A DNA stretch of 32,000 nt from Cupriavidus necator (GCF_016127575.1 NZ_CP066018.1:1590001-1622000), one strand, 5' to 3'. Counted from the first letter of the stretch, positions 1,740 to 18,774 are shown. Notes: generated from the sequence alone by a model not told the origin. Numbers and translations: made by a program.

Positions 1740-2660
1740 CTATTGCAGGTCGTTGCGCATCACCAGCAGCCACGGCATATGCGAATTGGTGACGCCGTCG
1801 AGCCGGCCCGAATCGCCCAGCTCGATCTCCTCCATCGACACCGACTGCTGGACATTGCCGCCGATGGCACGCACCACGCGCGTGGCCGGATCCACGCCGA
1901 CCACGATGTCGCAGTGCATAGGGGTGGTGCCGAAGCCGATTTCGGCGATGTCCTCCAGATAGCGGTCGCGTCCGCGCCCGGCGCAGATGATGTCGCCGGG
2001 CCGGGGCATGGCGGGGACGGGCTCGATATGGAAGGCTGGCCTGGGCAGGATGCCGTCGCGGGCATCGACCACGTACATCGAGTGCGACTGCCCGGTCAGG
2101 AACTGGCGCTCGTCCAGCCCCGCCTTGCGCAGCACCCATGAGATAAACACCGCCGACCAGGCCCAGGATCCCTGCGTCACCTGCCGGCAGCCGGGCGCTT
2201 CGCCGACGATGCCCCAGTAGCGGCGCGCCAGCGAGCAGCCCAGGGGCGTGGCTTCCATGCCGGTGCCGTCCGGAAAGGACAGGCAGCTGGCGGCCGGTGG
2301 CGGATTGCCGTTGGTCTTGGATTCGGTATCGGTGGTGGCGGCAGCGGGTGCCCCGGCCTCCGCGGGGGACGGTGGCTGGGCCTCCGGGATCTCTGGCAGT
2401 GGCGCAGGCAGTTCCGGTGCGGGCACCGGGCTGTAGGTGACGCAGGAGGTGTCGTCCCGGCCCAGCCGCACCACCTGCCCGCCCCAGCGGGCCCATTCCT
2501 GCGTGGCGATCTCGACGATGCGTTCGCGCGGCGTGGCGCCCGGGCGCGTCACCGGCCTTTCGGTGTCGGGCAGCGCGCGCGCCTGCGGCCGCACCGGCTC
2601 GCTGACGGTGGTGCAGGCACTCAGCAGTGCCAGCGCCACGGCAACACAGGCCGCGCGCAT
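1740..2660 (-). CDS. Lipoprotein with a C-terminal DUF2272-like domain (function unknown)
   Basis: The ORF is 1740-2774. I place the start at the internal ATG at 2660, which gives MRAACVAVALALLSAC, a canonical lipoprotein signal with lipobox LSAC. A Pro/Ala-rich linker follows, then WAWSAVFISWVLRKAG...PRPGDIICAGRG...MHCDIVV, which I recognise as DUF2272-like from memory and have not searched. The start could instead be upstream at 2774 or 2756. Confidence 0.65.
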   Translation of the reverse strand: MRAACVAVALALLSACTTVSEPVRPQARALPDTERPVTRPGATPRERIVEIATQEWARWGGQVVRLGRDDTSCVTYSPVPAPELPAPLPEIPEAQPPSPAEAGAPAAATTDTESKTNGNPPPAASCLSFPDGTGMEATPLGCSLARRYWGIVGEAPGCRQVTQGSWAWSAVFISWVLRKAGLDERQFLTGQSHSMYVVDARDGILPRPAFHIEPVPAMPRPGDIICAGRGRDRYLEDIAEIGFGTTPMHCDIVVGVDPATRVVRAIGGNVQQSVSMEEIELGDSGRLDGVTNSHMPWLLVMRNDLQ

Positions 2661-2672
2661 GGTGCCTGCAGC

Positions 2673-2732
2673 CTGTGGAGAAAGCTGTGGAACCGGCTGT
2701 GGAAAGCGCTGTGCATAACGCTGTGGAGATCT
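2673..2732. repeat. Five head-to-tail 12-bp units: CTGTGGAGAAAG / CTGTGGAACCGG / CTGTGGAAAGCG / CTGTGCATAACG / CTGTGGAGATCT
   Basis: The CTGTG(G/C)A cores start at 2673, 2685, 2697, 2709 and 2721, an exact 12-bp period. The array begins 13 bp upstream of the lipoprotein start. Each unit contains a 9-mer resembling the reverse DnaA box TGTGNAWAA, scoring 8/9, 7/9, 8/9, 9/9 and 7/9 by my count. Confidence 0.85.
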
Positions 2733-2995
2733 GCGGCGCGGCGGACGGGCAAGCATGGAGGCCCCATGTGGCACGGCACCCGGTCCGGCCTGTCACGGCC
2801 ACGGCTGGACGCCTGTTGGAAGACTTCGCGCGCGATCGCTCCGGCGACGGATTCAGCGATGCGGCGGATACTGCAGAAAATCAGCTTACCGCTGTGGATA
2901 ACGTCCCCCGCCTGGCGCTCGCCAGCGCCCTCGGGCACCGGGCGGCGGCATGGCGGGGTCTGACAATTCGGGCCCTGCAGTGCAGCCCGTCAGGC

Positions 2996-3274
2996 TCACT
3001 GGTTGACAGCGTCCTTGAACTTCTGGCCAGCCTTGAACTTCACGGTCTTGGCTGCTTCGACCTTGATTTCTTCGCCGGTACGCGGGTTGCGCGCCATGCG
3101 CTCGCCACGCTCGCCCTTGCTGAACGTGCCAAAGCCGATGAGGCTCAGCGTTTCGCCCTTGGCCACGGCGTCCATGATGGCCGACAGGGTCACGTTCAGT
3201 GCCTGTTCCGCCTTGGACTTGGTCAGACCGTCCACCCCGGCTGCGATAGCGTCGATCAGTTCGGTTTTCGTCAT
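2996..3274 (-). CDS. hupB: HU-family nucleoid-associated DNA-binding protein
   Basis: 92 aa: MTKTELIDAIA...FGTFSKGERGERMARNPRTGEEIKVEAAKTVKFKAGQKFKDAV. It shows the classic HU/IHF fold signature, including the RNPxTGEEI arm. Confidence 0.95.
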   Translation of the reverse strand: MTKTELIDAIAAGVDGLTKSKAEQALNVTLSAIMDAVAKGETLSLIGFGTFSKGERGERMARNPRTGEEIKVEAAKTVKFKAGQKFKDAVNQ

Positions 3275-3815
3275 GCTTCACTCCGTATCGAGTTGATAAA
3301 ACACAGGCGTCCGCATGCCGGGCGGCCTGACTGGCACCGCTCCGGCAAAGACACCGCGGGCCACATGATACCGTGTCGGACAAGGCGCACCGGGAACAGA
3401 TTGTTACCTGGCAGTTTCCGCGAGGCCGCGCCAGGCTGGGCTTCGCGGCAAATCGACGCAGCTGGGTACAGCCATCGCAAGCCGCGGAAGGTGACGAAAG
3501 CGTCCTAAGCTGACAGGCAGGGGCCCCCAGGTCGCGCAGGCGAGATAGCGGGCGGGCCGCGTACCTAGCCTCTCACCCATCCCTCGCCAGAGGCCCTCAG
3601 AGGCCCTCTGCCCACGCGCAGGCGCATTGGACAGGGCTGGAGAGCTACTGACGGCCAGAAACGCTTGCAGGCGCTCTGGCAGCCTCGGAGGCGCAGACTG
3701 CACTATGTTGCATGTTGTCGGATCATTGGGCTGGCGGCGAACCCAGCCGCTATTCGGCGCATGCATGGCACCTTGCCGGGGCGGTTTACGAACCGGCTCC
3801 AGATCCTGCGGGCGG

Positions 3816-3864
3816 CGTATACGTGAAAGTCGGTGTGGTTGGGCGTATACGCCCGAGGTATACG
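3816..3864. repeat. Left CGTATACG module: CGTATACGTG-N15-GGGCGTATACG-N5-GGTATACG
   Basis: GTATAC hexamers lie at 3817, 3845 and 3858. GGCGTATACGCC (3843-3854) is a perfect 12-bp palindrome. Confidence 0.85.
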
Positions 3865-3980
3865 CCGAATCTTCAAATCCAAAACCACAAAGCTTCGCGC
3901 TATCGCGACGTTTACAGTCCCGGCCATTTGGATGATGCCTTGGGGGCATTCTTTTGCTGACGCCGTTGGTTCGTTCTTTC

Positions 3981-4048
3981 GGTTTACCTTCTTCTTTCAT
4001 GTATACAAATAGTAGTAGTAAGTAAACACCCGCCCCCGCTGTGGAAAA
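3981..4048. promoter_or_regulatory. AT-rich tract + TAGTAGTAGTAA run (4010-4021) + 11-nt pure G/C cluster (4029-4039) + consensus DnaA box TGTGGAAAA (4040-4048)
   Basis: Read directly: cttctttcatGTATACaaaTAGTAGTAGTAAGTAAACAcccgcccccgcTGTGGAAAA. The order and orientation (AT-rich, then G/C cluster, then TGTGGAWAA) parallel the DUE / R1-box junction of E. coli oriC. The 5'-TAG-3' repeats equal the 3'-GAT-5' DnaA-trio motif. Function is inferred only. Confidence 0.4.
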
Positions 4049-4074
4049 CCACGTAAACGTCTTTCGGTTCAACG

Positions 4075-4086
4075 GTTTACGTAAAC
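4075..4086. repeat. Perfect 12-bp palindrome GTTTACGTAAAC, part of a CG(G/T)TTTACG motif family
   Basis: GTTTAC occurs at 3784, 3910, 3982 and 4075. GTAAAC occurs at 4022, 4053, 4081 and 4262. Motif orientation flips around the AT-rich core near 4000-4020. Confidence 0.8.
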
Positions 4087-4221
4087 GAGAAGTGGTCGTA
4101 TCCAATGTTGGTCGAGGTGGATGACTCAACCATCCGGAGGAGGCCAGTGCCGCAAGCCCTCCGACTTATGCCTGAGGCATCCCCATGCCAGCCCCAGGCA
4201 GCCCACATCCAATCCGCGTGC

Positions 4222-4252
4222 TTGTCCACAGTTCGAGGCGGGGTTATCCACA
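4222..4252 (+). promoter_or_regulatory. Tandem, same-orientation DnaA-box-like 9-mers TTGTCCACA (4222-4230) and TTATCCACA (4244-4252)
   Basis: The second is a perfect match to the TTATCCACA consensus and the first matches 8/9. Their starts are 22 bp apart. Confidence 0.5.
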
Positions 4253-4298
4253 CGCGGGGACGTAAACGGGCGTCGCGGCTGAGGCGGAAATGGGGTGC

Positions 4299-4370
4299 CG
4301 TATACGTGTCAATCGCAACCAGGGCGTATACGGTGAGGTCGCCGGAAAGGGGTGTTACGTATACGTGTCA
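4299..4370. repeat. Right CGTATACG module: CGTATACGTGTCA-N11-GGGCGTATACG-N25-CGTATACGTGTCA
   Basis: GTATAC lies at 4300, 4326 and 4359. The 13-nt direct repeat CGTATACGTGTCA sits at 4299-4311 and 4358-4370. The CGTATACGTG-N13-GGGCGTATACG arrangement mirrors the left module as a direct repeat about 483 bp away. Confidence 0.85.
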
Positions 4371-4458
4371 CGGTTGCACCGGTATCATCCCCGATCGCGC
4401 CGGAACGGCCGGCACAGCGGGCCACTCAGGCAAACAGGCGACGAGCACGGAAAGGCAA

Positions 4459-4974
4459 ATGGCGGACAAGGCAAAGCGCAAGGCAGCGGACGAGGGCAAG
4501 AAGAAGACGGCGAGCGACCGGATCGAGGTGCGCCAGTCAGGCGTGCACGGCAAGGGCGTCTATGCGATCGGCCAGATCGCCGAAGGCGAACGCGTGATCG
4601 AGTACAAGGGCGAGCACATTTCGTGGAAGAAGGCGCTGGAGCGCCATCCGCACGATCCCAGCGATCCCAACCACACTTTCTACTTCAGCCTGGACGACGG
4701 CAGCGTCATCGACGCCAAGTACGGCGGTAACCGCGCGCGCTGGATCAACCACGCCTGCGAACCCAACTGCGAAGCGCGCGAGAAAAAGGGCCGCGTCTTC
4801 ATCCACGCGCTGCGCGACATTGCCGAGGGCGAGGAGTTGTTCTACGACTACGGCCTGGTCATCGACGCGCGCTATACCGCCAAGCTGAAGAAGGAGTTCG
4901 AGTGCCGCTGCGGCAGCCCGCAATGCCGCGGCACCATGCTGGCACCGAAAGAAAAGAAGAAGAAGGCCAAGTAA
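4459..4974 (+). CDS. SET-domain protein (putative protein-lysine N-methyltransferase) with Lys-rich N- and C-terminal tails
   Basis: I start the gene at ATG 4459, preceded by GGAAAGG. This gives 171 aa: MADKAKRKAADEGKKK...VRQSGVHGKGVYA...RWINHACEPNC...GEELFYDYG...CRCGSPQCRG...KEKKKKAK. The SET signatures NHxCxPN and ELxYDY and a post-SET CxCxxxxC are present. The 4105-4458 part of the ORF looks non-coding. Confidence 0.85.
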   Translation: MADKAKRKAADEGKKKTASDRIEVRQSGVHGKGVYAIGQIAEGERVIEYKGEHISWKKALERHPHDPSDPNHTFYFSLDDGSVIDAKYGGNRARWINHACEPNCEAREKKGRVFIHALRDIAEGEELFYDYGLVIDARYTAKLKKEFECRCGSPQCRGTMLAPKEKKKKAK

Positions 4975-9655: not shown

Positions 9656-9764
9656 ATCTTTTCCTGCGGCGCGTTGCAGGTTTGCGTGCCGGTCTTGCGC
9701 TCCTGTGGCGTGCGTGTCACCCTCGCCGGGTGCCGCAAACGTGGCGGGAACGGAGGATGGCAGG

Positions 9765-12700
9765 ATGAAGGGAATCGTCGCCCGAGCCGATCGGGGTCTT
9801 GGCAGGATGCCAATGCAATTGCATGCGCGGCGCGCAGTCCTGGCCCTGGTGGCCACGCTTGGAATCCTGGCAGCGGGCGGCGCGCAGGCCGCGCAGGTGA
9901 CGCGCTTCTCCCCTGAAGGCACGGTCGGGCAGGTGCGGCAGGTGGCGATCCGCTTTGACGAGGCCATGGTGCCGATGGGCGACGTCCAGGCCACCGCGCC
10001 CGCGGCGGTTTCCTGCACCGGTGCCGGCACCGGCGGGCAGGCCCGCTGGATCGATGCGAAGAACTGGGTCTATGACTTTGCCAGCGACCTGCCGCCGGGA
10101 GTGCGCTGCACCGTGCGCATGCGCACCGGCCTGCGCAGCGTGGCCGGCACCGCCTATGCCGGCAAGCCGGAGTACCGTTTCGAGACCGGCGGCCCGACGG
10201 TCGTGTCCAGCCGGCCTGCGGGCGGCGAGATCGAGGAAGACCAGGTCTTTGCGCTGCGCTTCAATGGCGCCGCCACCGCGGCCTCGGTGCGCGAGCACGC
10301 CTGGTGCCAGGCGCAGGGGCTGGGCGAGCGCATCCCGGTGCGCTTGCTCGCCGGCAAGGAGCGCGATGCCGTGCTCGACGCCATCCACTGGGAACGCATC
10401 GCCAAGCAGGCGCCCGATGCCGTGCACCTGCTTGCCTGTCAGCAGCGGCTGCCGGCCGCGGCGCGGGTGCAACTGGTGCTGGGCGCGGGCATTGCCACGC
10501 CCTCCGGCGTGGCCACGCGCGACGAGCGCCGCTTTGACTACACCGTGCGCGAACCCTTCACCGCCAGCTTCAGCTGCGAGCGTGAACACGCGCAGTCGCC
10601 GTGCACGCCGCTGCGGCCGATGTCGGTCAGCTTCTCCTCGCCGGTGCCGCGCAAGCTGGCCGAGAGCGTGGTGCTGAAGACGCCGTCCGGCCCGCGCGCG
10701 CCGCAGTTCGATCCCGACCTGGCGCCGGACGCCAGCGTCAGCGCGCTGACCTTTGCCGCGCCGTTCGCGGAGAAGGCCCAGTTCACCATCGAAGTGCCGC
10801 GCAACCTGAAGGACGACAGCGGCCGCACGCTGGCCAATGCCGACCTGTTCCCGCTCAAGGTGGCCACGGCATCGATGCCGCCGCTGGCCAAGTTTGCCGC
10901 GGCGCCGTTTGGCGTGGTGGAACGCTTCGGCGAGCTGCCGCGCGGCAAGGCGCCGGCCGACTACCCGCCGCTGCTGCCGGTGACGCTGCGTAACGTCGAG
11001 GCTGACCTCGCCGTGCGCGGCGTGCAGGCCAGGGCCGGCACCGTGATGAAGCTGCGCGTGGACGACGACACTGCCGTGATGCAGTGGTTTGGCCTGGTGC
11101 GCCGCATGCATGAGGCCAGCTATACCCGGGCCGAGCTCGACGCCGTGCTGGCGGGCCGCTCCCCGTATCGAGTCAACAACCCGCGCAATGCCGTGTCGAT
11201 CGAGACGCGCTCGGTGTCCCTGCTCGAGCGCGCCCCCGGCGTGCAGAAGCTGGCCGTGCCCAAGCCTTCGGGCGATGCGCCGCGGCCGTTCGAGGTGGTG
11301 GGCATCCCGCTGCCGGAACCGGGCTTCCATGTGGTGGAGATCGCCTCGCCGATGCTGGGCGAGTCGCTGCTGGGCAAGCGTGCGCCGATGTACGTGCGCA
11401 CCGCGGCGCTGGTCACCAACCTGGGCGTGCATTTCAAGCTCGGCCGCAGCGCCGGCAATGAAGACGATGGCAGCCGCAGCGGGCTGGCCTGGGTCACCGC
11501 ACTGGACGACGGCAAGCCGGTTGCCGATGCCGCCGTGGCGGTGCGCGACTGCAGCGGCCGCCTGCTGGGCGAAGGGCGTACCGATGCCAGCGGCGTGGTG
11601 CGCTTTGCCAGGCTGGCTGCCGCGCCCGAGGGCGCCTGCGAGCAGAACGGGCTGTCGGGCTATTTCGTCTCGGCCCGCATCGGCGTCGGCCACCCGCAGG
11701 CACGCGGCAAGGCCGACATGGCCTTCGTGATGTCGGACTGGAACCGCGGCATCGAGAGCTGGCGCTTCAATGTGCCGACCGACACCGGCACCGCACCCAC
11801 GGTGCGCGCCCACACCATCTTCGACCGCACGCTGCTGCGCGCCGGCGAGACCGTGTCGATGAAGCACGTGATCCGCGCCGAGACCGCGCAGGGCTTTGCC
11901 CTGCCGCCGGCCAGCCGACCGCTCCCCACGCGCGTGGTGATCCGCCATGAAGGCAGTGGCCAGACCTACGAGCTGCCGCTGCAATGGCGCCAGACCGCGA
12001 CCGGCGGGCGCAGCGCGGAAAGCAGCTTCCAGGTGCCGGCGGCGGCCAAGCTGGGGGTCTACAGCGTCGAGCTGGAAACGCAGAAGGGCGAAGGCGCGCA
12101 GGACAATGGCGGTGCGCGCGGCTACACCAGTGGCAGTTTCCGGGTCGAGGCATTCCGCTTGCCGGTGCTGGCCGGCACGCTACAGGTGGCAGGCAAGGCG
12201 GGGCCCATGGTGGCGCCTGCCGAACTGCCGGTCGGCGTGGAGATCCACTACCTCTCCGGCGGCGGTGCGGCCGGGCTGCCCGTGCGCGTGTCCGCGCTGC
12301 TGCGCGACAAGTACGTCAGCTTCCCCGGCTATGACGAGTTCTCGTTCAACCCGCCGCGCGCGCAGCGCGAAAGCGCCAGCGGCGACGAGGAGATGGATGA
12401 GGACGAGCAGGGCGATGCCAGTGCCGACAGCCAGAAGCTGGTTGCCGACAAGCTGCCGGTGACGCTCGACAAGAACGGCAACGGCACCGTCACGCTGCGC
12501 AAGCTGCCCAAGATTGAAGCCCCGCGCGACCTGCTGCTCGAAGCCGGCTTTGCCGACCCCAACGGCGAGATCCAGACGCTGCGCCAGACCGTGCCGGTGT
12601 GGCCGGCGGCGGTGGTGGCCGGCATCCGCACCGATGGCTGGGTCTCGGTCAAGCAGAAGCTGGCCGTGCACGGCGTGGTGCTGGACGTCAACGGCAAGCC

Positions 12701-15700
12701 GGTGGCGGATGCGCCGGTCAAGATCAACGCGCGGGCACGCATCACCACCTCGGCGCGCAAGCGCGTGGTGGGCGGCTTCTACCGCTATGACAACCGCTCC
12801 GAAACGCGCGACCTCGGCACCGTGTGCGAGACCCGCACCGATGCGCAGGGCCGTGCGCGCTGCGACGTGGCGCTGGAGCAGGCCGGCCAGATCGAACTGG
12901 TGGCGAGCGCGCGCGACAAGGACGGGCGCACCGCGCAGGCGGCCTCGACGGTCTGGGTCACGCGCCAGGGCGAGCTCTGGTTCGGCGGCGAGAACCATGA
13001 CCGCATCGACCTGCTGCCGGAGAAGAAGTCCTACGCGCCGGGCGACACCGCCGTGTTCCAGGTGCGCATGCCGTTCCGCCATGCCACCGCGCTGGTGGCG
13101 GTGGAGCGCGAGGGCATCTACCAGACCCAGGTGGTGGAACTGCATGGCAGCGATCCCACCGTGCGCGTGCAGGTGAAGCCGGAGTGGGGGCCCAACGTCT
13201 ACGTGTCGGTGCTGGCCTTGCGCGGGCGCCTGCATGAGGTGCCCTGGTATTCGTTCTTCACCTGGGGCTGGCGCCAGCCGGGCGAGTGGTGGCGCGCGTT
13301 CCGCAGCGAGGGCCGCGAATACGCCGCGCCGACCGCGCTGGTGGACCTGTCCAAGCCGGCCTTCCGGCTGGGGCTCGCCGAGATCCGCGTCGGCAATGCG
13401 GGCCACCGGCTCGACGTTACCGTGACGCCGGACAAGGCCAGCTATCCGGTGCGCGGCAAGGCGCGCGTGGCGATCCAGGTGAAGCTGCCAGAAGGCAAGC
13501 CCGCCGCCAACGGCGAAGTGGCGCTGGCCGCGGTGGACCAGGCCTTGCTGGAACTGATGCCCAACACCAGCTGGGATCTGCTCGATGCGATGCTGCAGCG
13601 GCGCGGCTACGGCGTGGAAACGTCGACCGCGCAGATGGAGATCATCGGGCGCCGCCACTACGGGCGCAAGGCGGTGCCGGCGGGCGGCGGCGGCGGCAAG
13701 AGTCCCACGCGCGAGCTGTTCGACACGCTGCTGGTATGGAACCCGCGCGTGCAGCTCGACGCCGAGGGCCGCGCCAGCATCGAGGTGCCGCTCAACGATT
13801 CGTTGACCAGCTTCCGCATCGTCGCGGTGGCGGACCTCGGCCTCGGCCGCTTCGGCACGGGCAGCGCCACCATCGCCGCCACGCAGGACCTGCAGGTGAT
13901 TTCCGGCCTGCCGCTGCTGGTGCGCGAGGACGACCGCTACCGAGCCATGTTCACGCTGCGCAATACCACCAGGCGCGCAATGACGGTGCAGGCCAGCGCG
14001 CGCGGCACGCTGCTCGGCAATGAGGCCAGCCTGCCGGCGCAGACCGTGCAGATCCCTGCCGGCGAAGCGCGCGAGATCGGCTGGGACGTGACCGCGCCAG
14101 CGTTGCTGGCGTACTCACGCAGCGGCACCGTGATGTGGGAAGTGCAGGCGAGCGAGCAGGGCACGGGGGGCGCGGCCGACCGCATCAAGGTGTCGCAGCA
14201 GATCGTGCCGGCGGTGCCGGTGACAGTGCAGCAGGCCACGCTGGCGCAGGTGTCGCCGTCGCTGTCGGTGCCGCTCAAGGCACCGCCGGGCGCGCTGGCG
14301 GATCCTGCGGGCAAGGTGCGCGGCGGGCTGCAGGTGAACTTCCAGTCGTCGCTGGCGGGCGGCATGCCGGGCGTGCGCGAGTGGTTCCGCAACTACCCGT
14401 TCACCTGCCTGGAGCAGCGCGCATCGAAGGCCATCGGCCTGAACGACACCGCCGCGTGGGACGCGCTGATGACGCAGCTGCCGTCCTACCTCGATGCCAA
14501 CGGGCTGGCCTCGTACTTCCCGCTGAACGCCGACGGCGACTTCGGCAGCGAAGTGCTGACCGCCTACCTGCTGGCGGTCACCGACGAGGCCGCGCGCGCC
14601 GGGCTGGCGCTGCGCATCCCCGACGCGCAGCGCACGCAGATGGAGCGCGGGCTGACCGACTTCGTCGAAGGCCGCATCCGCCGCGACAGCTGGGCCCCGG
14701 TGGCCGGCACGCAGTACCTGGACGCGCGCAAGCTGGCCGCGCTAGAGGCGCTGTCGCGCACCGGCCATGCTCAGGCGCGCATGCTGGGCTCGATCCAGAT
14801 CCTGCCGGCGCAATGGCCGACCTCGGCGCTGCTGGACTGGACCCTGCTGCTCACGCGCATGCAGGACATCCCGCAGCGCGAGCAACGCCTGGCCGAGGCG
14901 CAGCAGCTGCTGCGCTCGCGCCTGACGGTGCAGGGCACGCGCCTGGCGTTCTCCACCGAGCGCAACGACAACTGGTGGTGGATGATGGCCGGCGGCGACA
15001 CCAATGCCGCGCGCCTGCTGGCGCTGGCGTCGGAACTGCCGGGCTGGAAGGAAGAAGCGCCGCAACTGGCCACCGGGCTGCTGGGCCGGCAGGTGCATGG
15101 TGCCTGGGGCACCACCACTGCCAACGCGTGGGGCATGCTGGCGGTGACGCGCTTCTCGCAGGCGTTCGAGAAGACACCGGTGGCGGGCACCACGCGGGCG
15201 AGCGTGAGCAATGCGGCCGACGCCTCGCGCAGTTTCGACTGGGCGCGCGCGCAGCGCACCGACGGCGTGGCCCAGGGCAGCCTCGACCTGCCGTGGCCGA
15301 CCGGCGCCGACGGCGGCACGCTGCAGGTGGAGCACGCCGGCGCCGGCCATCCGTGGGCCACGGTGCGGGCGCTGGCGGCGGTGCCGGTGACCGCGCCGCT
15401 GGCCGCGGGCTACCGCATCAGGCGCACCGTGACGCCGCAGGAGCAGGCGGTGCAGGGCAAGTGGTCGCGCGGCGATGTGTACCGCGTCAAGCTGGAGATC
15501 GATGCGCAGGCCGACATGACCTGGGTGGTGGTCAGCGATCCGGTGCCTGCCGGCGCCACCATCCTCGGCAGCGGCCTGGGCCGTGACTCCACGATCGCCA
15601 CGCGCGGCGAGCGGCGCAAGGGCGCGGCCTGGCCGGCCTACACCGAGCGCACGCCGCAGGCCTACCGCGAGTACTTCGGCTACCTGCCCAAGGGCACGGT

Positions 15701-15836
15701 ATCGGTCGAATACACGGTGCGGCTGAACAACGCCGGCGACTTCGCGCTGCCGCCCACGCGCGTGGAAGCGCTGTACGCGCCCGACGTGTTCGGTGTGGCG
15801 CCCAATGCGCGGCTGGCGGTGGGGGCGCGCCCATGA
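9765..15836 (+). CDS. yfhM: Bacterial alpha-2-macroglobulin family protein (YfhM/ECAM-like) with an intact thioester motif
   Basis: The ORF is about 2,000 aa. The thioester CLEQ is encoded at 14406-14417 (NYPFTCLEQRASK). MG-domain-like repeats are present, and the signal peptide reads ...AVLALVATLGILAAGGAQAAQ. The start ATG 9765 lies 8 nt after GGAGG (9752-9756), with alternatives at 9807 and 9813. No lipobox Cys is present. Confidence 0.92.
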   Translation: MKGIVARADRGLGRMPMQLHARRAVLALVATLGILAAGGAQAAQVTRFSPEGTVGQVRQVAIRFDEAMVPMGDVQATAPAAVSCTGAGTGGQARWIDAKNWVYDFASDLPPGVRCTVRMRTGLRSVAGTAYAGKPEYRFETGGPTVVSSRPAGGEIEEDQVFALRFNGAATAASVREHAWCQAQGLGERIPVRLLAGKERDAVLDAIHWERIAKQAPDAVHLLACQQRLPAAARVQLVLGAGIATPSGVATRDERRFDYTVREPFTASFSCEREHAQSPCTPLRPMSVSFSSPVPRKLAESVVLKTPSGPRAPQFDPDLAPDASVSALTFAAPFAEKAQFTIEVPRNLKDDSGRTLANADLFPLKVATASMPPLAKFAAAPFGVVERFGELPRGKAPADYPPLLPVTLRNVEADLAVRGVQARAGTVMKLRVDDDTAVMQWFGLVRRMHEASYTRAELDAVLAGRSPYRVNNPRNAVSIETRSVSLLERAPGVQKLAVPKPSGDAPRPFEVVGIPLPEPGFHVVEIASPMLGESLLGKRAPMYVRTAALVTNLGVHFKLGRSAGNEDDGSRSGLAWVTALDDGKPVADAAVAVRDCSGRLLGEGRTDASGVVRFARLAAAPEGACEQNGLSGYFVSARIGVGHPQARGKADMAFVMSDWNRGIESWRFNVPTDTGTAPTVRAHTIFDRTLLRAGETVSMKHVIRAETAQGFALPPASRPLPTRVVIRHEGSGQTYELPLQWRQTATGGRSAESSFQVPAAAKLGVYSVELETQKGEGAQDNGGARGYTSGSFRVEAFRLPVLAGTLQVAGKAGPMVAPAELPVGVEIHYLSGGGAAGLPVRVSALLRDKYVSFPGYDEFSFNPPRAQRESASGDEEMDEDEQGDASADSQKLVADKLPVTLDKNGNGTVTLRKLPKIEAPRDLLLEAGFADPNGEIQTLRQTVPVWPAAVVAGIRTDGWVSVKQKLAVHGVVLDVNGKPVADAPVKINARARITTSARKRVVGGFYRYDNRSETRDLGTVCETRTDAQGRARCDVALEQAGQIELVASARDKDGRTAQAASTVWVTRQGELWFGGENHDRIDLLPEKKSYAPGDTAVFQVRMPFRHATALVAVEREGIYQTQVVELHGSDPTVRVQVKPEWGPNVYVSVLALRGRLHEVPWYSFFTWGWRQPGEWWRAFRSEGREYAAPTALVDLSKPAFRLGLAEIRVGNAGHRLDVTVTPDKASYPVRGKARVAIQVKLPEGKPAANGEVALAAVDQALLELMPNTSWDLLDAMLQRRGYGVETSTAQMEIIGRRHYGRKAVPAGGGGGKSPTRELFDTLLVWNPRVQLDAEGRASIEVPLNDSLTSFRIVAVADLGLGRFGTGSATIAATQDLQVISGLPLLVREDDRYRAMFTLRNTTRRAMTVQASARGTLLGNEASLPAQTVQIPAGEAREIGWDVTAPALLAYSRSGTVMWEVQASEQGTGGAADRIKVSQQIVPAVPVTVQQATLAQVSPSLSVPLKAPPGALADPAGKVRGGLQVNFQSSLAGGMPGVREWFRNYPFTCLEQRASKAIGLNDTAAWDALMTQLPSYLDANGLASYFPLNADGDFGSEVLTAYLLAVTDEAARAGLALRIPDAQRTQMERGLTDFVEGRIRRDSWAPVAGTQYLDARKLAALEALSRTGHAQARMLGSIQILPAQWPTSALLDWTLLLTRMQDIPQREQRLAEAQQLLRSRLTVQGTRLAFSTERNDNWWWMMAGGDTNAARLLALASELPGWKEEAPQLATGLLGRQVHGAWGTTTANAWGMLAVTRFSQAFEKTPVAGTTRASVSNAADASRSFDWARAQRTDGVAQGSLDLPWPTGADGGTLQVEHAGAGHPWATVRALAAVPVTAPLAAGYRIRRTVTPQEQAVQGKWSRGDVYRVKLEIDAQADMTWVVVSDPVPAGATILGSGLGRDSTIATRGERRKGAAWPAYTERTPQAYREYFGYLPKGTVSVEYTVRLNNAGDFALPPTRVEALYAPDVFGVAPNARLAVGARP

Positions 15837-16537
15837 GCTGGCTGGCAATGATGATGCCGGCACGCGTGCGCGAGTGGTGGCTCGCGGGCACGCTGGCCGG
15901 CATCATCTACGGCGCGCTGCTGGTGCAGGTGGCGATCGAGCTGCCTGAAGGCGCGCCGCTGACCGGGCATATCGCCATGCAGCCCGCGTGGAAGACCGCG
16001 ATGGCGCTGCTGCTGGCACGCGCCGCGTGGTTCCACCGGCCGCTGGTTGAGCGCCGCTGGCTGGTCACTGCGCTGCTGTTCTCGGCCCTGGGCGACCTCC
16101 TGCTGGCGCTGCCGACGCTGACGTTTTCGTTCATGGGCGGGCTTGGCGCCTTTTTGCTCGCGCACCTGGCCTACCTGCGCGTGCTGGTGCCGCTGGCGGG
16201 CGACACGCGTCCGCACCGGCTGATTGCGTGCGGCGCCATGCTGGGCGTGGCGGGCACCATGCTGGGCCGCTTCTGGCCCAATATGGGCCCGCTGACGGTG
16301 CCGGTGGCGGTATACGTGGGCGTGCTTGCGGCGATGGCCTGCAGCGCGCTGGTGGCGCGCCTGCCCACGCCGCTGGCGGCGCTGGGGGCGCTGTGCTTTG
16401 CCGCATCGGACATGATGATCGGCATCGCGCGCTTCCTGGTGCCGTTCGAATCTTTCCAGCTTGGCATCTGGTGGACCTACGCCGCGGCCCAGGTGCTGCT
16501 GGTGGCGGGCATCGTGGCGGGACGCGAGCAGGCATGA
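15833..16537 (+). CDS. YhhN-family membrane protein (lysoplasmalogenase-like)
   Basis: 234 aa and polytopic. YhhN-like segments include SALGDLLLAL, FLLAHLAYL and FAASDMMIG. Its start overlaps the upstream stop as ATGA (15833-15836), and its stop overlaps the pbpC start as ATGA (16534-16537). Confidence 0.75.
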   Translation: MSWLAMMMPARVREWWLAGTLAGIIYGALLVQVAIELPEGAPLTGHIAMQPAWKTAMALLLARAAWFHRPLVERRWLVTALLFSALGDLLLALPTLTFSFMGGLGAFLLAHLAYLRVLVPLAGDTRPHRLIACGAMLGVAGTMLGRFWPNMGPLTVPVAVYVGVLAAMACSALVARLPTPLAALGALCFAASDMMIGIARFLVPFESFQLGIWWTYAAAQVLLVAGIVAGREQA

Positions 16538-18774
16538 AGCAGCGCTGTATTCGCATGGTGCTGGCGACGGCGTTGATCTGGTCCGCGCCGGCCATGGCGC
16601 TGCCGTCCTTCGAGCAAGTCCGTACCGACTGGCGCAGTGCCGACGTGGTGGTGCTGGACCGCCACGGCGATACCGTGGGCCGCGTGCGCGACGACTTCCG
16701 CGCGCGCCGCGGCGACTGGGTCGCGCTGGCCGATACCTCGCCCGCGCTGCGCACTGCCATCGTGCTGTCGGAGGACCGGCGCTTCTATGCCCACAGCGGG
16801 GTCGACTGGCAGGGCGTGGCGGCCGCGGCCTGGGCCAACCTGTGGAACACACGCACGCGCGGCGCCTCGACGCTGACCATGCAGCTGGCGGGCCTGCTCG
16901 ATGAGGACCTGCGCCGGCCGGGCGCGCCGCGGCAGGGCCGCAGCTTGACGCAGAAGCTGGGGCAGGCCGCCGGTGCGGCGGCGCTGGAGCGCAGCTGGAG
17001 CAAGGACCAGATCCTGGAGGGCTACCTGAACCTGGTGCCGTTCCGCGGCGAGCTGGTGGGCCTGTCTGCGATGTCGCAGGTGCTGTTCGGCAAGTACCCC
17101 GAAGGGCTCAACGCGAGGGAATCGGCCCTGGCGGTGGCGCTGGTGCGCGCGCCCAATGCCAAGGCCGCCCAGGTGGCAAGCCGCGCCTGCGGCATCCTGC
17201 GCGAGATGCGCCTGCCGCGCGAGTGCGAAGGCCTGGAAGGCTTTGCGCAACTGGCGCTGCTGCGCACCGGGCCGGTCGCACAGCGCGCCGCGGCCGCCAC
17301 GCCATCGGCGGCGTTGCCGCAGCTGGCACCGCACCTGGCACCGCACCTGGCACGGCGCCTGGTCGGCGAAGCGCGCTCGCAACTGGCCGCGGGCGTACCC
17401 ATGCCTGCGCGCATCGCGTCCACGCTCGATGCCCGCCTGCAGCGCGAGGCTGCCACCAGCCTGGACCGGCACCTGCGCGAACTGGCCGGGCGCAATGTCG
17501 AGGACGGCGCGGTGGTGGTGATCGACAATGCCAGCGGCGACGTGCTGGCCTATGTGGGCTCGTCGGGCACGCTGTCAGGCGCCGCGCAGGTGGACCACGC
17601 GGCGGCGCTGCGGCAGGCGGGCTCGACGCTCAAGCCCTTCCTGTACGAGCAGGCGCTGGAAGAGAAGCGGCTGACCGCGGCTTCGCTGCTGGACGACCGG
17701 CCGGTGAACCTGCCGGTCGGCGGCGGGCTCTACGTGCCGCAGAACTACGACCACCGCTATGCCGGCTGGGTCAGCCTGCGCGCGGCGCTGGCCGCGTCGC
17801 TGAACGTGCCCGCAGTGCGCACGCTGGTGATGGTGACCCCGCACCGCTTCCACAAGCGGCTGGTGGCGTTGGGGCTGCCGTTGACCGAGGCCGGCGACTA
17901 CTACGGGTTCAGCCTGGCGCTGGGCAGCGCCGACGTGTCGCTGCTGGCGCTGACCAATGCGTACCGGGCACTGGCCAATGGCGGGCGCTACGCGCCGCCA
18001 CGGCTGCGGGAAGGGGCGCCGCCAGCCGCATCGATGACAGTGGTGATGCAACCAGGCGCCAGCTACGTGATTGCCGACATCCTGTCGGACCGCCATGCGC
18101 GCGCGCGCACCTTCGGCCTGGACAGCCCGCTCACCACGCGCTTCTGGACCGCGGTGAAGACCGGCACCAGCAAGGACATGCGCGACAACTGGTGCATCGG
18201 CTGGTCGCAGCACTACACCGTGGGCGTGTGGGTCGGCAATGCCAGCGGCGCCAGCATGCACGAGGTCTCGGGCGTATCGGGCGCAGCGCCGGTCTGGCAC
18301 GACATCATGGAAGCGCTGCACCGCACGCGCGCCAGCCACGCGCCCGCCATGCCCGACGGCGTGCAGCGCGTGGCGCTGAGCTTCGACGACGGGCTGGAGC
18401 CGGCGCGCGATGAAGTCTTTCTGGCCGGCACGGCGATCCGGCGCGTCAGCGTGAGCGCACCCGCCGCGCGCCCGACCGCACCCGTGATCGCCAATCCCGC
18501 CGACGGCACCGTGTTTGCGCTGGACCCCGACATGCCGCCCGCGGCGCAGCGGGTCTGGTTCCATGCCGAGGGCGTGGCCGGCCAGACCGCGCGCACGGTC
18601 AGCTGGCGCATGGACGGCAAGCCGCTGGGGCGCGGCGGCGAGGTGGCATGGCTGCCGTGGCCGGGGCGGCACCAGGTGGAGTTGCTCGATGCGTCTGGCA
18701 AGGTGGTGGACCGCATCGGCATCGAGGTGCGTGGCGCGTCAGTGCGCGCGCCGGTGCCAGCGGCCAAACGCTGA
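16534..18774 (+). CDS. pbpC: Penicillin-binding protein 1C (bifunctional transglycosylase/transpeptidase-like)
   Basis: GT51 motifs are SEDRRFYAHSGVDW and GASTLTMQLA. Transpeptidase motifs are STLKPF, SLN and KTGTS, and a C-terminal PbpC domain is present. The start is at MKQRCIRMVLATALIWSAPAMA. The ORF part 16228-16533 overlaps yhhN and is rejected. Confidence 0.93.
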   Translation: MKQRCIRMVLATALIWSAPAMALPSFEQVRTDWRSADVVVLDRHGDTVGRVRDDFRARRGDWVALADTSPALRTAIVLSEDRRFYAHSGVDWQGVAAAAWANLWNTRTRGASTLTMQLAGLLDEDLRRPGAPRQGRSLTQKLGQAAGAAALERSWSKDQILEGYLNLVPFRGELVGLSAMSQVLFGKYPEGLNARESALAVALVRAPNAKAAQVASRACGILREMRLPRECEGLEGFAQLALLRTGPVAQRAAAATPSAALPQLAPHLAPHLARRLVGEARSQLAAGVPMPARIASTLDARLQREAATSLDRHLRELAGRNVEDGAVVVIDNASGDVLAYVGSSGTLSGAAQVDHAAALRQAGSTLKPFLYEQALEEKRLTAASLLDDRPVNLPVGGGLYVPQNYDHRYAGWVSLRAALAASLNVPAVRTLVMVTPHRFHKRLVALGLPLTEAGDYYGFSLALGSADVSLLALTNAYRALANGGRYAPPRLREGAPPAASMTVVMQPGASYVIADILSDRHARARTFGLDSPLTTRFWTAVKTGTSKDMRDNWCIGWSQHYTVGVWVGNASGASMHEVSGVSGAAPVWHDIMEALHRTRASHAPAMPDGVQRVALSFDDGLEPARDEVFLAGTAIRRVSVSAPAARPTAPVIANPADGTVFALDPDMPPAAQRVWFHAEGVAGQTARTVSWRMDGKPLGRGGEVAWLPWPGRHQVELLDASGKVVDRIGIEVRGASVRAPVPAAKR

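Follow-up and report, generated by a model that had tools for sequence, protein, structure and literature searches.

The DNA analysed here is a stretch of 32,000 nucleotides, referred to throughout as the window, from a genome with a GC content of 68%. Comparison with CP196472.1, the 4,049,929-bp (∼4.05 Mb) main chromosome of a Cupriavidus necator-type bacterium, gave no mismatches over the ∼2.6 kb overlapping the fetched locus. The element under study is housed in a 1.18-kb non-coding gap between two divergent genes: hupB on the minus strand (2996–3274) and a gene for a SET-domain protein on the plus strand (4459–4974). The gap was defined from codon-position GC content, Pfam matches, plasmid homologues of HU and public gene calls. 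The hupB product is an HU family DNA-binding protein (Pfam Bac_DNA_binding) whose plasmid homologues are annotated as HU; the right-hand neighbour matches Pfam SET (9.5e-23) and adjoins the element in both Cupriavidus and Ralstonia. The element lies at ∼3.969 Mb in the CP196472.1 record, ∼80.3 kb from its end, and is unlinked to dnaA, the two being about 80 kb apart. As the initial annotation had stated, neither dnaA nor parAB nor mnmG is among the genes called in the window.

Other explanations for the gap were tried and rejected. Three long ORFs run across the region (3404–4129 on the minus strand, an N-terminal extension at 4105–4974, and 1690–2802), and these were rejected as coding because they either had no Pfam match or were wrong-frame artefacts of a high-GC genome. 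A plasmid origin was dropped when a blastn search of 2600–4460 against PLSDB matched only the hupB gene, and a phage origin when 3300–4460 gave no phage match. For structured RNA, there was no Rfam match at the gathering score in the window, nor at E ≤ 1 in 2600–4500. A tRNA search of the window found none.

Direct reading of the sequence confirmed all six motif positions given by the initial annotation between 4010 and 4252. Allowing at most one mismatch, the window contains eight DnaA boxes where 1.19 would be expected, and none of 100 shuffled sequences reached eight. Six of these boxes fall within 2674–4252, and there was no other DnaA-box cluster in the scanned 52-kb stretch from −19.9 to +32 kb. 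The motif observation is confirmed and is not due to chance.

Three of the boxes form a core region of exactly 213 nt (4040–4252), in which one box is perfect and two have a single mismatch. The R1-like box (4040–4048) reads TTTTCCACA on the minus strand, or TGTGGAAAA on the plus strand; in most other species this position is occupied by a perfect TTATCCACA. The R4-like box, TTGTCCACA(G), is on the plus strand at 4222–4230, inverted with respect to the R1-like box and 182 bp from it measured start to start. Written with its trailing G as TTGTCCACAG, it is of the TTRTCCACA type. A perfect plus-strand TTATCCACA follows in tandem at 4244–4252, 22 bp from the R4-like box start to start. The 173-bp spacer between the R1-like and R4-like boxes contains a weak internal box on the minus strand (4116–4124; TCATCCACC, two mismatches), which lies within a conserved GTGGATGACTC block. 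This weak box, which reads GTGGATGA, is itself conserved and is probably a low-affinity site. No site within one mismatch of the IHF consensus WATCAANNNNTTR was found in 3950–4300; at the same place some relatives have GATCAAnnnnTTA, a weak hint of IHF.

To the left of the R1-like box is a candidate DNA-unwinding element (3969–4028, plus strand; GC 0.32), in which a T-rich upper strand is followed by an AT-rich tract. Stability was compared over 63 kb of the chromosome (−30.9 to +32 kb), which we reconstructed via flanking-protein look-ups. The AT-rich tract described in the initial annotation proved to be real and to contain the least stable 40-mer of the entire 63 kb. This 40-mer starts at 3988 (GC 0.28), has a dG of −43.0 compared with a mean of −64.3 (sd 4.3), and ends 12 nt before the R1-like box. 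The second least stable 60-nt segment in the 63 kb starts at 3970. A GGTTTAC...CTTTTTCTTT...ATGTATACA block of the unwinding tract is kept in Cupriavidus and Ralstonia.

The DnaA-trio-like run TAG TAG TAG TAA (TAGTAGTAGTAA; 4010–4021, plus strand) shares its strand with TGTGGAAAA and precedes it on the 5′ side. The exact sequence TAGTAGTAG occurs only once in the 32 kb. Between this run and the R1-like box lie GTAAACA (4022–4028) and then an 11-nt G/C run, cccgcccccgc (4029–4039). The T-rich sequence, the 5′-TAG-3′ repeats and TGTGGAWAA are all carried by one strand. With dinB as a neighbour, we also considered TAGTAGTA as a LexA box, presumably of the Xanthomonas type, and dropped the idea when no palindromic partner was found.

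A scan with the SET protein gave 80 loci, and the boxes were examined in 20 of these, from Cupriavidus and Ralstonia. All 20 loci have the three boxes in the same orientation and at the same spacings (181–182 and 22 bp). In most species the core boxes are perfect TTATCCACA; the C. pauculus and C. campinensis loci, from close relatives of C. metallidurans CH34, have three perfect boxes each, and some Ralstonia have two to three extra copies of the 4244–4252 box at a 13-bp period. In all 19 sources that keep TAGTAGTA, the distance from the start of the TAG run to the box is exactly 30 nt; these sources come from four genera including Paraburkholderia and Trinickia. Loss of the boxes or of the trio run in relatives had been named in the initial annotation as evidence against an origin; what we found was the opposite, both for the boxes and their spacing in Cupriavidus and Ralstonia and for the TAG offset across the four genera.

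The same picture is given by a MAFFT alignment of 15 sequences from the four genera (alignment A1). The invariant columns are GGTTTAC, ATGTATACA, ATAGTAGTAG, CTGTGGA.AA, TCAA, GTGGAT and CTTATCCACAG, while the remainder drifts; columns T51–T57, which correspond to the TAG run, are likewise invariant. It is on the functional motifs that the invariant blocks fall. The module can still be recognised in Paraburkholderia and Trinickia; the Paraburkholderia relatives have two inverted modules 3.1 kb apart rather than one. The G/C run is present at 4029–4039, as had been reported, but is kept only as general GC-richness within the C. necator clade and not in other Cupriavidus or in Ralstonia. At the corresponding position Ralstonia has a weak tandem box, GGTGGATAT, plus CTTC.

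The gap is filled with GTATAC and GTAAAC/GTTTAC repeats, every one of them a GTWWAC site. Fifteen of the 18 GTWWAC sites in the window (seven GTATAC and eight GTAAAC/GTTTAC) fall within 581 bp (3784–4364), and the density in the element is ∼17-fold over expectation. Local dinucleotide-preserving shuffles contained 0.88 ± 0.95 sites, with a maximum of five in 1000 shuffles. In 11 Cupriavidus loci, the hupB–SET intergenic kilobase holds 12–18 GTWWAC sites out of 15–24 per 20 kb. Ralstonia retains only two sites, those inside the unwinding tract. These two are common to all four genera, being recognisable also in the Paraburkholderia and Trinickia sequences of alignment A1.

GTWWAC is the m6A target of an orphan type II methylase that is conserved across the Burkholderiaceae, and the motif is methylated in R. 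solanacearum (PMC5390034). In C. necator H16 it is an m6A motif with 95.3% of sites detected, and the H16 methylome data list no CACAG methylation (PMC6742796). In B. cenocepacia it is methylated by M.BceJIV/BCAM0992, with sites located between DnaA boxes in all origins (PMC7364216). The HU–SET region of R. solanacearum is one of five loci that have more than one conserved methylated GTWWAC site, and the megaplasmid repA region is another (Erill et al., PMC5390034).

A further group of boxes lies on the far side of hupB, so that this gene sits between two DnaA-box clusters. Five tandem DnaA-box-like units, CTGTG(G/C)A, are repeated with an exact 12-bp period on the minus strand (2673–2733), just upstream of the start of a DUF2272 lipoprotein gene; CTGTGCA occurs within the array at 2709–2715. 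A perfect minus-strand box, TGTGGATAA on the plus strand, is found at 2893–2901, downstream of hupB. In 10 Cupriavidus species the units of the five-box array do not vary, whereas the spacers between them drift (alignment A2), and TGTGGATAAC around the 2893–2901 box is invariant in the same alignment. The array is absent in Ralstonia. Neither the upstream boxes (2673–2901) nor the GTWWAC cluster had been noticed in the initial annotation.

The strand asymmetry around the element was followed through the 63-kb reconstruction. GC skew is positive throughout the window. In this reconstruction the cumulative G−C curve declines gently until about −9 to −5 kb, where it has its minimum, 9–13 kb left of the element; it then rises, steeply so to the right from the element. 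Over the 13 kb immediately left of the element the skew is weakly positive, and in related loci the 10 kb on that side has a skew near zero, not negative. The GC3 skew sorted by gene orientation flips near −10 kb, with plus as the leading strand to the right and as the lagging strand further left. Of the 16 genes in the interval that begins with def (−15 kb) and ends with dinB, 15 are oriented toward the element. Across loci, every copy of the KOPS-like sequence GGGNAGGG counted to the right of the element is on the plus strand (25:0); to the left the plus strand still predominates (20:6 across loci and 5:1 in 27 kb of this genome, both small numbers), and the KOPS polarity shows no flip at the element. 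The skew switch is therefore placed roughly within 10–15 kb of the element and not onto it, and the KOPS result argues mildly against the element being an oriC.

In C. metallidurans CH34, the GC-skew transition of CHR1 is at ∼3,837,500, ∼90 kb from dnaA, and is immediately preceded by a 213-nt region with three perfect DnaA boxes (Janssen et al. 2010, PMC2864759). The element resembles this predicted CHR1 origin in its 213-nt three-box region and in its distance from dnaA (∼80 kb here), and differs in that one box is perfect and two have one mismatch, compared with three perfect boxes in CH34. The topB...ntrYX synteny to the left of the element is kept in C. metallidurans strains other than CH34. 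From geometry and synteny, we infer that the element is homologous to the CH34 213-nt region. The CH34 paper describes neither the trio run nor the unwinding tract, and neither the GTWWAC cluster nor the upstream five-box array (PMC2864759). Oric1 of B. cenocepacia J2315 is also alike, with boxes ending in CACAG, a CTGTGCA 7-mer, GTWWAC between boxes, an AT-rich block and a location far from dnaA (PMC4948915; PMC7364216), but there the features are scattered, and its authors were unable to assign the origin a position (PMC4948915).

The layout matches that of E. coli oriC, as the initial annotation had proposed for the DUE–R1 junction from the order and orientation of the motifs. The polarity is the same, with a T-rich upper strand, TGTGGAWAA and then an inverted TTATCCACA-type box, and the distance from R1 to R4, start to start and in the same relative orientation, is 180 bp in E. 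coli MG1655 and 182 bp here. Both have a cluster of methylation sites (11 GATC in 232 bp in E. coli oriC and 15 GTWWAC in 581 bp here), with such sites inside the unwinding tract, and both are unlinked to dnaA, which is 42 kb away in E. coli and ∼80 kb away here. Unlike E. coli oriC, the element has no recognisable 13-mer repeats and no close IHF consensus, has a second tandem box after the R4-like box, and uses a methylation motif and enzyme unrelated to Dam. Its neighbours are hupB and the SET-domain gene rather than mnmG and mioC.

A second point of comparison is the basal unwinding system (BUS) of B. subtilis and H. pylori, which consists of one or more DnaA boxes, a short spacer, 3′-GAT-5′ DnaA-trios and AT-rich DNA (Richardson 2016; Pelliciari 2021, PMC8287927). 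Here, 5′-TAG...TGTGGATAA-3′ is the reverse complement of a box followed by 3′-GAT-5′, that is, the BUS layout, and the suggestion that the 5′-TAG-3′ repeats correspond to DnaA-trios is upheld by their strand and side. As in a BUS, there are at least three trios, with a central A, on the correct strand and side of the box; the four genera have three to four perfect 5′-TAG-3′ repeats in this predicted arrangement, followed by AT-rich DNA. The difference is in the spacer. The published BUS search allows spacers of 0–16 bp, the modal value being 10–13 (PMC8287927), whereas the nearest TAG/TAA here is 18–21 nt from the box (18 nt for the TAA and 21 nt for the last TAG); only by counting the imperfect triplet AAC can the gap be brought down to 12 nt. 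Where C. necator has the pure G/C run in this gap, Ralstonia has the weak box GGTGGATAT, by way of which it comes within the BUS spacer rule. By analogy, the element would work like a BUS, yet it does not cleanly fit the definition used in the search.

Taken from its sequence, the hupB–SET region is very likely to hold the main-chromosome oriC of this Cupriavidus necator-type bacterium, DnaA-dependent and unlinked to dnaA. Among the features by which an oriC is recognised, a significant box cluster, an AT-rich tract adjacent to a box, and conserved motifs and spacing are present. The reading draws on the motif enrichment, the extreme local instability, the E. coli-like geometry and the conservation of motifs and spacings across genera; from the literature, it draws on the genome-wide skew transition at the orthologous CH34 site and on GTWWAC methylation. 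The initial annotation had offered three readings (an unlinked chromosomal oriC, a secondary or cryptic origin, and a datA/DARS-like site), and the first of these is best supported, by polarity, conservation and the CH34 skew. A literature search found no marker-frequency, ChIP or autonomous-replication data for the element, and the accessible part of a 2026 marker-frequency study of C. necator (Nat Commun, PMC13342612) gave no origin coordinate.

E. coli oriC and the BUS suggest, by analogy, a course of initiation. DnaA-ATP would occupy the strong boxes at both ends of a ∼210-bp assembly region, that is, 4040–4048 and the opposed pair at 4222–4252, and would oligomerise inward over weak sites such as 4116–4124. 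An oligomer anchored at the R1-like box would extend over the upper-strand TAG repeats; the adjacent T-rich/AT-rich tract (3969–4028) would then open, and the helicase would be loaded there. The 15 GTWWAC m6A sites would become hemimethylated on firing and might time or limit re-initiation, like GATC in E. coli and GANTC in Caulobacter. This timing step is speculative because we know of no SeqA-type reader of GTWWAC. In Cupriavidus specifically, the five-box array and the perfect box beyond hupB may add to DnaA loading or titration.

The lack of an asymmetry flip at the element raises the question of whether the origin lies elsewhere, at the skew minimum ∼10 kb to the left or beside dnaA, with the element instead regulating DnaA through datA-like titration/hydrolysis or DARS-like reactivation. 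We regard this as improbable. Neither GC skew, GC3 skew nor KOPS polarity flips at the element, and the 12-bp array at 2673–2733, which could serve a datA-like titration role, does resemble a titration array. A datA-type locus pairs its DnaA-box cluster with an essential IHF site; in 3950–4300 no IHF consensus turned up within one mismatch. A DARS core, however, has three closely packed boxes within ∼50 bp and no unwinding element, and such packing is not seen here, the boxes being 182 and 22 bp apart. Both datA and DARS can do without an unwinding element or a trio run, whereas the element has both, with the TAG run held at its fixed 30-nt offset in four genera. The box spacing is that of an E. 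coli-like origin, and there is no rival box cluster from −19.9 to +32 kb. In CH34, the region upstream of dnaA also has DnaA boxes (one perfect and three imperfect), but it is the orthologous site, not dnaA, that coincides with the genome-wide skew transition (PMC2864759).

The region might alternatively be merely the shared control region of the divergent hupB and SET genes, with the boxes as operators and GTWWAC methylation as an epigenetic promoter switch, which we consider quite improbable. Both genes need promoters within the 1.18 kb, and Erill et al. took the R. solanacearum HU–SET region as promoter control, three conserved methylated GTWWAC sites there overlapping the predicted −35 elements of both genes (PMC5390034). 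A sigma-70 consensus scan of 2600–4500, a weak and uninformative test, found no promoter-like site. Promoter control leaves unexplained the spacing of the inverted boxes, the fixed-offset trio run, the extreme instability and the co-location with the CH34 skew transition, and in Paraburkholderia the module is 3.3 kb from the SET gene with other genes between them. Origin and promoter-control roles are in any case compatible; in E. coli, too, oriC has regulated promoters on its flanks.

Least probable of all is an ancestral or cryptic origin, kept by descent and no longer the main initiation site: the asymmetry markers to the left have the wrong sign for 10–27 kb, as such a relic might allow, but an unused origin would decay, whereas here strong purifying selection acts across genera on the motifs and on the exact distances between them, against a background of drifting intergenic sequence on either side, and the right-hand arm has a clean leading-strand signature that starts at the element.

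As a discovery, an oriC at this position is modest. The type of element is textbook, and the orthologue was flagged as a likely origin in CH34 in 2010 (PMC2864759). What is new are refinements: the fixed-offset trio run, the 182-bp E. coli-like geometry, the identification of the repeats as the GTWWAC motif, and the upstream five-box array.

The refinements bear on organisms of some importance, since bioproduction from CO2 and H2 uses C. necator H16 as a major chassis and the Burkholderiaceae are model multipartite genomes. To our knowledge, the exact main-chromosome origin has never been mapped by experiment in this family. That of B. cenocepacia c1 was called unclear by Du et al. 2016 (PMC4948915). 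The comparative anatomy narrows the candidate to a conserved module of ∼290 bp, a concrete fragment for mini-chromosome or vector building, DnaA ChIP and mutagenesis. It also recasts the HU–SET GTWWAC hotspot of R. solanacearum as a replication origin and not merely a promoter region, which makes a role of the orphan methylase in replication timing directly testable.

A wider proposal concerns the methylation itself. GTWWAC N6-adenine methylation by an M.BceJIV-type orphan methylase could conceivably be an origin-licensing mark, an independent analogue of Dam/GATC/SeqA and CcrM/GANTC, although we hold this to be doubtful at present. The proposal is based on the packing of GTWWAC into the putative oriC, on the conservation of the two unwinding-tract sites across four genera, and on the recurrence of the motif in secondary replicons, at the repA region of the R. 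solanacearum megaplasmid and at the replication regions of B. cenocepacia c2 and c3. If it is true, a corollary would be that the Cupriavidus origin is bipartite, with hupB rather than dnaA between two conserved DnaA-box clusters, and a putative reader of hemimethylation could coordinate the firing of all replicons in these multipartite genomes.

Most of the DnaA boxes in the window carry one extra flanking base, giving TCCACAG or CTGTGGA (4039–4048, 4222–4231, 2673–2727 and 2892–2901), and four genera share an invariant C immediately before TGTGGA. One methylation motif of B. cenocepacia is CACAG. The published methylome of C. necator H16, however, lists only GAYNNNNNCTTGY and GTWWAC as motifs (PMC6742796), and the extended form of the box may therefore be caused by a preference of DnaA rather than by methylation.

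In some Ralstonia species the right-hand tandem DnaA boxes of the candidate origin are present in four or five copies with a 13-bp period (TTATCCACA / CTATCCACA; related-genome loci L015 9759–9815, L016 and L019 9756–9812). Paraburkholderia and Trinickia have two modules, each consisting of a minus-strand box and a plus-strand box 170–181 bp apart, with ∼3.1 kb between the modules (locus L029, 3346–3590 and 6690–6905; also L033, L039, L040, L042, L044, L057, L063 and L076). Module ‘b’ is orthologous to the element in the window; module ‘a’ adjoins mnmC and holds 9–10 GTWWAC sites. At the right edge of module ‘a’, the unit GTATAC-GTAGTA-GTTAAC-16 nt-box is present as an inverted copy. Therefore, the putative unwinding ends of the two modules face each other across the Na/H-exchanger and GCS2 genes that lie between them.

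Over 27 kb leftward from the putative origin, the KOPS-like sequence GGGNAGGG favoured the plus strand by five occurrences to one in the merged sequence (a 63-kb reconstruction that extends beyond the window start; window coordinates −23357 to +1616). Between def and dinB, 15 of the 16 genes are oriented towards the putative origin. Both polarities are opposite to those predicted for a leftward fork from 4.0 kb; one possibility is a past rearrangement adjoining the origin.

Some C. necator strains, not including that of the window, have an insertion flanked by the LamB-like porin gene and dctP (L082 and L083, 5759–7471). It lies ∼3 kb to the left of where the window begins and encodes a group II intron-type reverse transcriptase with RVT_N, RVT_1, GIIM and HNH domains. 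To the right, a large alpha-2-macroglobulin-family gene (2043 aa) and, after it, one for a PBP1C-type penicillin-binding protein (9705–18774) form the A2M-PbpC pair usual in bacteria, which has no relation to the candidate origin.

Within the intergenic gap, the third nearest to hupB (3400–3780) is GC-rich, contains a perfect tandem CAGAGGCCCT CAGAGGCCCT (3588–3607) and gave no alignment when several other Cupriavidus species were compared by blastn. Beyond hupB, between its stop codon and the start of the DUF2272 lipoprotein gene, lie five tandem DnaA-box-like CTGTG(G/C)A units with an exact 12-bp period (2673–2733) and a perfect DnaA box, TGTGGATAA (2893–2901). The boxes are unchanged across ten Cupriavidus species while the spacers between them drift; in Ralstonia, the array and the perfect box are absent. 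With this arrangement, hupB would be embedded with one DnaA-box cluster on each side.
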